NCBI GenBank assembly: GCA_024697575.1
Contig: JAILFM010000128.1
Location: 7,973 to 71,972 of the forward strand
Origin: Clostridiales bacterium
Lineage (GTDB): Bacteria > Bacillota > Clostridia > Oscillospirales > Acutalibacteraceae
Direction: 5' to 3'
Length of the DNA: 64,000 bases
In this document: positions 41,088 through 44,030 of the stretch, piece after piece
Layout: the number at the start of each line of letters is the position of its first letter
How positions within the stretch are numbered: the first letter of the stretch is position 1
Notes under the pieces: model-generated
What the model was told of the DNA's origin: nothing
The model's database searches: none
What the model saw: only the letters and a program-made list of their open reading frames with translations
Translations under genes and position numbers: made by a program

Positions 41088-44030
41088 TCAGCGTGAAATA
41101 TATTTTGACGGATCTTTTAACTCTCCGTTATAAATAACTTCAAAATGAAGGTGAGGACCGCTTGAGTTGCCGGTTGAGCCGACCTTACCGATTTGCTGAC
41201 CTGCCTCAACATACTCCCCAACTGAAACAGTTATTGAACCCACAACCATATGTGCGTATCTTGTCTTGAAGCCGTCACCGTGATTGATAAGAACCATCTG
41301 ACCGTAGCCGGACATTGAACGCTGAACAACCTCAACTCTGCCGGATTTTGCCGCGATTACGGGCGAACCGTATGCCGTGCCGTTACCGGTGCAAAGATCA
41401 ATTCCCTTATGCCAGCCGCTTGACCGCCAGCCGTATCCCGACGACGTGCTGCGGCAGTGAGGCGCCGGCCATAAAAAGCCGTAATCTGACGCTTCACCGA
41501 TATAAACGCCGTTATACGATGTCATGGAACCTACCATAACAACCTCATTAACCGGCTCAACAAGAGTATCAAAGGAATACTCCGTTCCGCTCATCTCTCC
41601 GTTAATATATGTAACGGTTTTGGTGACCCTCTCACTGCCGTCGACGCCCTTTTGAAGAACCGTAAAGAATCCGCTGTATTTCGAGGGATCTTTTTTCCGC
41701 TCGGTTGAATATTTTACCGTGCGTACGGAAGTGGTAGTCATGGTTTTTTTTATGTTTACAAGCCCGTCAACAACCGGCAAAAGGATTCTGTCGCCCACGA
41801 CAAGGTGCGTCAGATCATAATCCGGGTTGGCCTGCTGCACCATTTGCTCGGTAACGGAGTTTCTGTCACAGATTGAAGAAACGGTATCGCTTTCACTGAT
41901 GATATAAACCATGGTGTTGCCCTTTTCGCCGGCAACAACCGACTCGAGCTTTGACGGCTCCCATATGATATCTTCGCTGTCGGCGTAAGCCCCTTGGATA
42001 TAATCTATCTTTTCGGCAAAACCGATAACATAGCCTTCTTCCTCCGCCTGCTGTTCATAAGGCTCAAGAATATTGTAAAAAACCGTTTTAGCGTCCGTTT
42101 CATTCTTGACAGCGCATATAAACCTGCCGTCAATATATACTCCGCATGCGTCGGTCAGGTTATCAATACTGCTGTGAACCATTTTGTCGGATATAGTGTT
42201 CGCGTCGCTAAGTTTATCAAGTGATACGATTGCGAGGGCGTATTGTGAGGATGAACCTTCGGGCAGACTTTGTGACGCCGTCCGTTCAAGAAACTTATCT
42301 TTTGCGTCAAGAAAAACCGATTCGTCGCTTATATAGCCGATGCTCTCACCGTCATAGATAACCTCAAGAGCAAATGTCAGACTTTTCAAAGATGAGAAGG
42401 CTGTTATAAGAACAACAAGCGACGCTACGGGAAGAATATCAAAAAAAATGCTTTTAAAAAGTCCCCTGTGATTTATTAAAGCCTTTTTTGTATAATGTGA
42501 GATAACCCCCGGCAGTTTTTTCGGTTGAGCTATCGCTTTGCGAAACGCCCGTGACGATGTACGGATTTCAAAGCGGAAAACAGCCATTTCTTTAATAAAA
42601 GCCATTTTAGCTTTTTTTCTTGAAAGCCGTAAATCCTTTGTTAAAAGGCGGAATTTATCTCTTAAAAATATGAACGGAAAAGTAATAACAAAAACTATAA
42701 TTCGAAAAACAGTCGAAATTATTTTTGTGACACAATCGCCTAATGAATAAACAGCTTTGTATAAGGAACTTTTACCGTTAAAGGAAAAACTTTCTTCATT
42801 CTGATTTTCGGGCACAGATAAAGCTGAAATATCGGGCATGATATCCGATTTTTCTTCGTTTTCTCCGGTCAGAACGGTAATATTAAAAACCTCAGGTTCT
42901 TTTTGAATTCCTGTTTCCGAAGCGGGCAATTCACCGGCGGCAATGCTGTCGTGATTTTTCAGCGCTTTTTCAAGCTGCTGTGAATAACGGCGTTCTATAT
43001 CTTCGCGGATACCCTGCATTTCTATTTCGCTTTTTTCGCTGAACGCCTTTTTTCTCTCATCAAACCTCTTTTCCGCGTTAAAATCGGAGTAAGTTTCGGC
43101 AAGACTCTGAAATTTGTCCATTATCTCGTCAAAAATTCCGGAACCGGTGGCACTGTCAGCAGTTGTATTGCCGGATGAATTATTAATACAATTCATGCCG
43201 GTTAAAAAGCGCCTGACAGCGTCCTGCCATGACGGCAGACGGTCAAACCCGGCACTGTCGAGAGATGATTTTGATAACCGTGAATTTAAAGGTCTTTGCG
43301 CCCTTGAGGGATATTCTGCGGTTTTTATAGGTGTTACCGTTGTATTCTTACCGGCAACATCAAAAACGTATTTTGCAAGCTGAGCCCAGGAGCAAACGCC
43401 TTCGTTAGTTGCGTGGTAAACGCCGTATTTATCCGAAAAAACCATTGAACACAGCAGCGGCGCAAGGTCTTTAGTGTATGTCGGCGAACCGATTTGATCG
43501 TCAACAACACTGATACTGTCCTTTTCTTCGCTCAAGCGAAGCATGGTTTTTATAAAATTTTTGCCGTTTTCTCCGAAGACCCATGAAATCCTGACAATAA
43601 AATATTTTGAGCAGTTTTTTCTGATGATTTCCTCGCCCTGATATTTTGTTAATCCGTAATAGTTAACCGGGTTAACAGGCGAATCAATTCCGGAAAAATT
43701 TTCACCGGAGTTATCAAAAACATAGTCTGTACTTGTGTAAAGCAAAGCGGCATTGATTTTCTCACACGCCTTGGCAATGTATAAAGTTCCGTCGCAGTTA
43801 ATTTTTTTGCATTCATCCCTGTTTTCCTCTGCAGCGTCAACATCGGTAAAAGCGGCAAAATGCATAACAGCGTCGGGTTTTTCACGAAACAGAAATTCCG
43901 AAATCTCTTTTTCGTCAGTTATATCAATATCCGGCAGGTCGGCGCCGATGCATTCAATGTTGTTCTTAAGCAAAAATTCAACAACGTCGCTGCCAAGCTG
44001 ACCCTTAGACCCTGTCACAACAATTTTCAT
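41088..44030 (-). CDS. rfbD: dTDP-4-dehydrorhamnose reductase (RfbD/RmlD) fused to a membrane-anchored LysM-G5-M23 peptidase
   Basis: aa 1-278: GSKGQLG, STDYVF, YGLTK, RISWVFG and DDQIGSPTY. C-terminus: LysM (ISESDTVSSI..LVVGDRILLP), G5 (KGVDG..VTYING..EPVNEVVMVG) and M23 (HKGIDL, RYAHM, GPHLHFEV). Confidence 0.85.
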   Translation of the reverse strand: MKIVVTGSKGQLGSDVVEFLLKNNIECIGADLPDIDITDEKEISEFLFREKPDAVMHFAAFTDVDAAEENRDECKKINCDGTLYIAKACEKINAALLYTSTDYVFDNSGENFSGIDSPVNPVNYYGLTKYQGEEIIRKNCSKYFIVRISWVFGENGKNFIKTMLRLSEEKDSISVVDDQIGSPTYTKDLAPLLCSMVFSDKYGVYHATNEGVCSWAQLAKYVFDVAGKNTTVTPIKTAEYPSRAQRPLNSRLSKSSLDSAGFDRLPSWQDAVRRFLTGMNCINNSSGNTTADSATGSGIFDEIMDKFQSLAETYSDFNAEKRFDERKKAFSEKSEIEMQGIREDIERRYSQQLEKALKNHDSIAAGELPASETGIQKEPEVFNITVLTGENEEKSDIMPDISALSVPENQNEESFSFNGKSSLYKAVYSLGDCVTKIISTVFRIIVFVITFPFIFLRDKFRLLTKDLRLSRKKAKMAFIKEMAVFRFEIRTSSRAFRKAIAQPKKLPGVISHYTKKALINHRGLFKSIFFDILPVASLVVLITAFSSLKSLTFALEVIYDGESIGYISDESVFLDAKDKFLERTASQSLPEGSSSQYALAIVSLDKLSDANTISDKMVHSSIDNLTDACGVYIDGRFICAVKNETDAKTVFYNILEPYEQQAEEEGYVIGFAEKIDYIQGAYADSEDIIWEPSKLESVVAGEKGNTMVYIISESDTVSSICDRNSVTEQMVQQANPDYDLTHLVVGDRILLPVVDGLVNIKKTMTTTSVRTVKYSTERKKDPSKYSGFFTVLQKGVDGSERVTKTVTYINGEMSGTEYSFDTLVEPVNEVVMVGSMTSYNGVYIGEASDYGFLWPAPHCRSTSSGYGWRSSGWHKGIDLCTGNGTAYGSPVIAAKSGRVEVVQRSMSGYGQMVLINHGDGFKTRYAHMVVGSITVSVGEYVEAGQQIGKVGSTGNSSGPHLHFEVIYNGELKDPSKYISR

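Follow-up and report, generated by a model that had tools for sequence, protein, structure and literature searches.

The window analysed here is a 64,000-nucleotide stretch of a Clostridiales bacterium genome (contig JAILFM010000128.1 of assembly GCA_024697575.1, positions 7,973 to 71,972). On its minus strand, a stop-free open reading frame (ORF) of 980 codons joins rmlD, the gene for dTDP-4-dehydrorhamnose reductase, in frame to a gene for a membrane-anchored LysM-G5-M23 peptidoglycan endopeptidase. With moderate confidence, the junction is read here as the former boundary of two cistrons, an overlapping and hairpin-coupled gene pair that has lost one base in the 15 nucleotides (nt) before the ATG at 43196. 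An earlier note on this DNA had proposed a programmed frameshift, slippage between five and six T's (T5/T6) or a one-base deletion from two coupled genes at this point, and the comparative data favored the last of these. The evidence points to the site being an ordinary gene-boundary lesion or a lineage-specific fusion.

In the intact state, rmlD would have ended at the TAA at 43185-43183 and the endopeptidase gene would have started at ATG 43196, with a 14-nt overlap and no Shine-Dalgarno (SD) motif. A stable nested mRNA structure would bury this ATG and place the rmlD stop at its apical loop. On reaching the end of rmlD, a ribosome would open the structure and reinitiate 11 nt back; by such translational coupling, the wall hydrolase would be made in amounts no higher than those of RmlD. 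One base would then be missing in the assembly within the 15 nt ahead of the ATG, with a T from the run and an A, C or G from the adjacent AA, CC or GG as equally good candidates. As a result, the rmlD frame would miss its stop and enter the endopeptidase frame, giving the 980-codon ORF, and nothing would be programmed at the T run. Should the cell itself lack the base, read-through would produce an RmlD-endopeptidase chimera; should only the assembly lack it, the cell would carry two ordinary genes. The features on which this reading turns are the following.

41088 to 44030, minus strand: P0001, the 980-codon stop-free ORF, in which RmlD is joined in frame to the membrane LysM-G5-M23 endopeptidase.
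43203 to 44030, minus strand: rmlD-homologous part, codons 1-276, with the conserved WQDAVRRFL as its C-terminal end (placed by alignments to solved RmlD chains).
43197 to 43211, minus strand: candidate stretch for the single-base loss, CGC TTTTT AA CC GG C, 15 nt.
41088 to 43196, minus strand: endopeptidase cistron if standing alone, 702 amino acids (aa) from ATG 43196.

The rmlD-endopeptidase boundary in the genus

The query matched 129 of the 132 genus genomes at E <= 1e-60, and rmlD and the endopeptidase gene were adjacent and in the same order wherever coordinates were listed. The named records of the genus are uncultured Clostridia of ruminant guts. The nearest congeners are only 50-61% identical, indicating that this species sits on a long branch. 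Only this genome (G000) has a match over residues 1-980 without a stop, and the four other whole-length matches in the genus all contain in-frame stops. Open frames of more than 1000 aa are listed for G013, G003, G009 and G010, and fused genes were considered there and rejected: the DNA of each shows stops and SD-ATG starts. Listed frame lengths of this size run through the stops between both genes and are insufficient alone to call fusions.

All 18 junctions examined consist of two genes, with an rmlD stop, an SD core and an ATG. The rmlD stop lies 1-9 codons past the conserved RF(L), the SD core is GGAG in 17 junctions and GGGA in one, and the spacers between the genes range from 5 to about 170 nt. 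The ATG of these relatives opens MD(N/K)..., 16-26 residues ahead of the conserved FDEI(M/T)D motif. In G000 the methionine of ATG 43196 is 21 residues ahead of FDEIMD, indicating that this codon corresponds to the endopeptidase start codon of the relatives.

No other RmlD-M23 fusion was found among the 5.8 billion clustered proteins searched. A junction-spanning query against metagenome and genome contigs returned only RmlD relatives of at most 71% identity, in collections possibly without the nearest genomes. Neither the 980-aa protein nor the 702-aa protein counted from ATG 43196 had a copy in exact look-ups. The deletion from two coupled genes is favored by the single stop-free frame in 132 genomes, the two-gene state of 18 junctions out of 18 and the alignment of ATG 43196 with the starts of the relatives, together with the normal RmlD tail and the position of the ATG in a significant hairpin of the coupling type, both of which are described below.

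Letters and reading frames at the junction

Three short elements lie at or directly after the candidate stretch.

43203 to 43209, minus strand: C-TTT-TTA heptamer, coding for F275-L276 of the conserved RFL motif and not of the X_XXY_YYZ form.
43194 to 43196, minus strand: ATG in the zero frame, matching the endopeptidase start codon of the relatives, with no SD motif ahead.
43183 to 43185, minus strand: TAA of the -1 frame, a candidate for the original stop of rmlD.

The minus strand reads CGC TTT TTA ACC GGC ATG AAT TGT ATT AAT at 43211-43182, with the T5 run at 43208-43204. The letters C-TTT-TTA, the in-frame ATG 43196 and the -1 TAA at 43185-43183 had thus been quoted exactly in the earlier note. 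The -1 frame reads AAC CGG CAT GAA TTG TAT TAA, and the 276 zero-frame codons followed by NRHELY make an RmlD of 282 aa. Six solved RmlD chains, whose alignments to P0001 end at query residues 276-279 (L276-T279), were used for comparison. Since the solved chains go on for 5-6 further residues past the position matching L276, the six-residue NRHELY tail is of normal length, and the claim that the -1 frame encodes a normal-length RmlD was confirmed.

The TAA sits 11 nt past ATG 43196, in the -1 frame only, and overlaps the endopeptidase frame by 14 nt (ATGAATTGTATTAA); the coupled arrangement requires one added base. Upstream of the ATG, G000 reads TTTTTAACCGGC, with no GGAG-type motif. The loss must be placed upstream of the ATG, because the endopeptidase would otherwise be out of frame, and downstream of RRF, because RRF is in frame by homology. 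At the heptamer position, the relatives code RF(L/I/V/F) with other codons, and the residue after RF is L in 11 of the 18 and F in three. A lost T would give an ancestral RFF and a lost A would keep RFL, so the T run is not the sole candidate. A base loss inside the hairpin, with the bulged C seen as a quasi-palindrome correction, was rejected: the endopeptidase ATG would be out of frame, with no start ahead of FDEI.

The -1 stop, the T5 run and the imperfect heptamer, three of the four apparent signals at the junction, are at chance level in this ORF. There are 81 stops of the -1 frame in its 981 codons, and the probability of one within 8 codons is 0.51. Its 2943 nt hold 36 A/T runs of at least five bases, about one per 82 nt, including T8, A8 and two A7. 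The same ORF has 11 canonical in-frame X_XXY_YYZ heptamers, two of which are A_AAA_AAG. The RNA structure alone is unusual among the junction features.

mRNA structure around the endopeptidase start

43171 to 43201, minus strand: inner hairpin of 13 base pairs (bp), with one bulged C and the loop AUUA.
43143 to 43253, minus strand: nested structure, made up of the outermost 5 bp, a side hairpin at 43239-43223, the outer 9 bp and the inner hairpin.

ATG 43196 is sequestered in the 13-bp hairpin, within two further helices and without a strong SD. The arms of this hairpin are CCGG-C-AUGAAUUGU and AUAAUUCAU-CCGG; the 5' arm contains the ATG, and the -1 TAA extends from the loop into the top of the 3' arm. 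Its folding energy of -13.9 to -14.5 kcal/mol corresponds to z scores of -4.5 to -5.8, and none of 200 shuffles was as stable, indicating that the hairpin described earlier is real. By raw energy, 1.4% of the 39-nt windows on the minus strand fold as well. The outer 9-bp helix is formed by 43221-43213 with 43159-43151 and the outermost 5-bp helix by 43253-43249 with 43147-43143. The 116-nt junction fold reached -44.1 kcal/mol (z -3.3). The z score of the 101-nt junction window, -3.84 in one run and -4.04 in another, was beyond those of all 260 control coding windows taken from the same 64 kb (mean -0.21, sd 1.11, minimum -3.81).

The 5' arms of the outer helices code for conserved RmlD residues (GAC GCT GTC AGG = DAVR), and the 3' arms fall within the first 20 codons of the endopeptidase, an unconserved N-tail. 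This tail is uncharged and rich in S, G, N and T here (MNCINNSSGNTTADSATGSG) and is charged and variable in all relatives examined. It looks as if the free endopeptidase side had been adapted to pair with the constrained RmlD side.

The hairpin probably serves coupling. Support for this role comes from the start regions of several relatives, which also form hairpins, and from a crude survey of overlaps in the genome. Among 215 candidate same-strand starts overlapping an upstream stop, 14 nt was the fourth commonest overlap (15 of 215), and about half of the overlapping ATGs had no strict SD core. In the relatives L010, L102 and L106, UUUUUUGGAG pairs with AAAAAAGUG near the endopeptidase start.

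The hairpin recurring in L010, L102 and L106 brings together the U-rich/SD stretch CUUUUUUGGAG and AAAAAAGUG, the K-K-V codons some 25 nt past the start of the gene, so that both SD and ATG are hidden. In L011 the start site folds differently but also strongly (z -4.1). Masking of the endopeptidase start site may be a genus-wide habit. Rfam gave no match in the region 43500-42900, even at E <= 10. A mobile or repeated palindromic element was also considered and rejected, the 81-nt junction having no other copy in the genome.

Protein parts of the 980-codon frame

In the profile search, PF04321 matched residues 1-278 of P0001 with 305.7 bits, and the TIGR01214 match to the RmlD part reached 286 bits against a cut-off of 224. 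The endopeptidase part carries LysM at 709-752, G5 at 765-835 and Peptidase_M23 at 874-974. Both domains of P0001 score as intact in a frame without a stop. The rmlD part is the single strong RmlD match in the genome, and rmlC is located elsewhere.

Counted from ATG 43196, the endopeptidase has 702 aa, compared with 681-738 aa in its homologues. Its predicted layout is a cytoplasmic N-region of about 240 aa, one conserved transmembrane (TM) helix (approximately 42378-42464) and the LysM-G5-M23 domains outside the cell. Of two hydrophobic segments, the second is strong in all relatives and the first stays under the threshold in 5 of the 17. Ahead of the TM helix there are 17-21 K/R versus 2-5 D/E in one stretch, and an acidic stretch follows the helix, indicating that the N-terminus is cytoplasmic. 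With the N-terminus on this side, an RmlD-endopeptidase chimera would be topologically viable and its RmlD would be kept inside the cell.

Across the endopeptidase family (window positions 41088-43196, minus strand, and the homologues P0002-P0012), the N-terminal FDEI(M/T)DGFYDL motif is conserved, and the cytoplasmic region of about 240 aa carries its very basic stretch directly ahead of the single conserved TM helix.

Mutation or assembly error

The source genome comprises 2.16 Mb in 179 contigs, with an N50 of 17.6 kb. In the window, 50 ORFs tile 95% of the sequence, and no other gene looks broken. Genome-wide, 336 frames of at least 500 codons remain uninterrupted although they span more than 5,000 homopolymers (5 to 12 or more bases each). 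This clean-looking assembly makes us lean toward a real mutation. By our guess, the base is fairly likely to be really missing in the cell, and that it is missing only in the assembly is rather improbable. A real mutation could persist, since both halves are intact and the chimera is topologically viable.

Alternative explanations

Several points weigh against the loss of a single base from a coupled gene pair. The missing base is deduced from frames and homology, and a -1 stop and a short homopolymer nearby are expected by chance. None of the 18 relatives examined has an overlapping junction without an SD, and their spacers measure at least 5 nt; the supposed intact ancestor would itself be unique to this lineage. 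The long open frames of the genome and the otherwise unbroken genes of the window argue against an assembly error, one of the two branches of this reading. An established fusion would account just as well for the lack of an SD and for the linker-like tail.

Such a fusion is possible, although we consider it rather unlikely. On the long branch leading to this species, the rmlD stop and the SD-bearing spacer would have disappeared through an in-frame deletion or through decay after the stop had become a sense codon (TAA to TTA, one substitution), and the 980-aa protein would be the normal, selected product. A linker rich in S, G, N and T would connect a cytoplasmic RmlD to the cytoplasmic tail of the endopeptidase, and the -1 TAA and the T run would be coincidental, which agrees with the coin-toss probability of the -1 stop (P 0.51). 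The stop-free frame with two halves that score as intact is what a fusion would show, and the missing SD and the linker-like tail are explained without extra assumptions: the internal ATG has no SD, compared with an SD in 18 of 18 relatives, and there is one charged residue in the 20 after the ATG, compared with charged tails in all relatives examined. The cytoplasmic N-terminus of the endopeptidase would leave RmlD inside the cell, and RmlD tolerates natural fusions at either end. With rmlD in single copy and rmlC present, rhamnose could be made only if the fused copy is functional. The adjacency of both genes wherever coordinates are listed suggests a functional link, and an identity of 50-61% to the nearest relatives represents ample time for fixation. 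However, the fusion is a singleton, absent from all 131 congeners, and no other such protein occurred in the database searched. Nor would a fused ORF require a nested RNA structure of such high significance, in which a retained ATG is buried and the -1 stop sits at the loop. The uncharged linker may be explained by a base-pairing constraint instead.

The remaining explanations assign a function to the slippery letters. A programmed -1 frameshift of the dnaX type, in which hairpin-stimulated ribosomes slip on C-UUU-UUA and the TAA frees a 282-aa RmlD while the remainder make the fusion, is very improbable. In its favor, the site has a heptamer rich in U, a stable structure downstream and, close by, a -1 stop that would end RmlD at a normal length. 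The heptamer is not of the X_XXY_YYZ form, and the P-site tRNA-Phe must re-pair on CUU. In E. coli a perfect U_UUU_UUA is far less shift-prone than A_AAA_AAG, and the usual spacer between heptamer and structure is 5-9 nt (PMC5009743). A stem does follow the heptamer, as had been claimed, but the claimed spacing of 6 nt did not hold: the hairpin base (43201) is 1 nt past the heptamer (43203), and the part remaining 6 nt away is an A/U stem of only -4.5 kcal/mol. There is no SD-like stimulator upstream of the heptamer, the arrangement is conserved in no relative (0 of 131 congeners), the Rfam search found nothing at the junction, and the 11 canonical heptamers of the same ORF are better sites. 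The proposal of a programmed frameshift was therefore not supported.

A reversible T5/T6 switch between the fused and the two-gene state, by slipped-strand mispairing of DNA or by transcriptional slippage, appears more improbable still. The T run does occupy the single spot at which gain or loss of one base would turn either state into the other. However, five bases are below the tract length of known homopolymer switches, which are usually 7-8 nt or longer, and of productive transcriptional slippage. The T8, A8 and two A7 runs of the same ORF would be far more mutable, and T6 would give RFF, whereas L predominates in the relatives. The anatomy of the site, with its short T5, thus did not support the slippage that had been proposed. 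Transcriptional slippage has been reviewed (PMC5009743).

There is a similarly slim chance that the chimera is real and that C-UUU-UUA and the nested structure give a low but useful level of -1 slippage, by which RmlD would be freed at TAA 43185 and ribosomes could restart at ATG 43196. If this is true, one mRNA would yield free RmlD, free endopeptidase and a tethered RmlD-endopeptidase, and the junction would be a young recoding site making up for a fusion lesion, which corresponds to what PMC5009743 calls a "savior indel".

Relation to known systems and significance

Coupled overlapping cistrons with a masked start include the coat/replicase and lysis restarts of MS2 and many ribosomal-protein operons, and a scanning model of reinitiation was reportedly described by Adhin and van Duin in 1990. 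The junction resembles these systems in that an ATG without an SD lies in a stable stem, the -1-frame upstream stop follows 11 nt downstream at the loop, and long-range helices link the 3' end of rmlD with the 5' end of the endopeptidase gene. Unlike in coupled cistrons, the assembled rmlD frame misses the stop, and the coupling layout exists only with one base added.

The frameshift site of E. coli dnaX has A_AAA_AAG, an upstream SD and a hairpin 6 nt downstream (PMC5009743). As in dnaX, a -1 shift at the junction would give a shorter product beside a long one, and a hairpin comes after the site. In contrast to dnaX, the junction heptamer is non-canonical and unconserved among the congeners, has no SD upstream and is separated from its hairpin by a 1-nt spacer.

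The junction is also similar to the frameshift chimeras that occur at gene boundaries in draft genomes and metagenome-assembled genomes (MAGs), in being a singleton whose genes are separate in relatives and which turns on one base near the 3' end of the upstream gene. It differs from ordinary lesions of such assemblies in that the assembly otherwise looks clean and both halves are intact. Natural RmlD fusions of gut Firmicutes likewise carry extra domains at either end, membrane proteins included; examples are RmlD-GT2, Wzx-RmlD (Wzx-like), PTPS_related-RmlD and RmlC-RmlD. These natural fusions recur in many clusters or contigs and join enzymes of one pathway, whereas RmlD-M23 was seen once only.

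As a recoding signal, the junction matters little. In annotation, treating the 980-aa "bifunctional" protein as a designed enzyme would be premature before the junction has been confirmed by reads. The genus-wide co-occurrence of rmlD and the endopeptidase gene, together with the masked start, hints that these uncultured Clostridia of the ruminant gut keep expression of the hydrolase linked to their synthesis of rhamnose polysaccharide. Should the base really be absent, the strain would be a natural test of the tolerance for a membrane-tethered RmlD.

Other observations on rmlD and the spacer

The C-terminal half of RmlD is 67-71% identical to the RmlDs of Oscillospiraceae, Butyricicoccus and Selenomonas MAGs, and its whole-length identity to same-genus RmlDs is only 52-61%. 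As the compared regions differ, this contrast is only a hint of lateral exchange of rmlD.

The long spacers between rmlD and the endopeptidase gene hold a promoter-like CTTGTAA-N17-TATAAT. The element, (G)ACTTGTAA-N17-TATAAT, is conserved in the spacers of most relatives (L002, L005, L007, L008, L009, L011, L106 and L108), where the endopeptidase gene seems to have its own promoter. Species with a compact junction (L003, L012, L101-L105 and G000) must co-transcribe the endopeptidase gene with rmlD.

An intrinsic terminator at the T run was considered, on the basis of a weak hairpin at 43229-43214 followed by GGCGCTTTTT and of a larger hairpin upstream, and was not adopted. The larger one, within 43249-43204 on the minus strand, is an imperfect 16-bp hairpin in the 3' end of rmlD (-17.4 kcal/mol in 39 nt). 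It is followed after 2 nt by the U5 run and is weakly terminator-like, with a z score of only -2.45. This hairpin and the outer helix of the junction structure compete for CGCUGUCAG.

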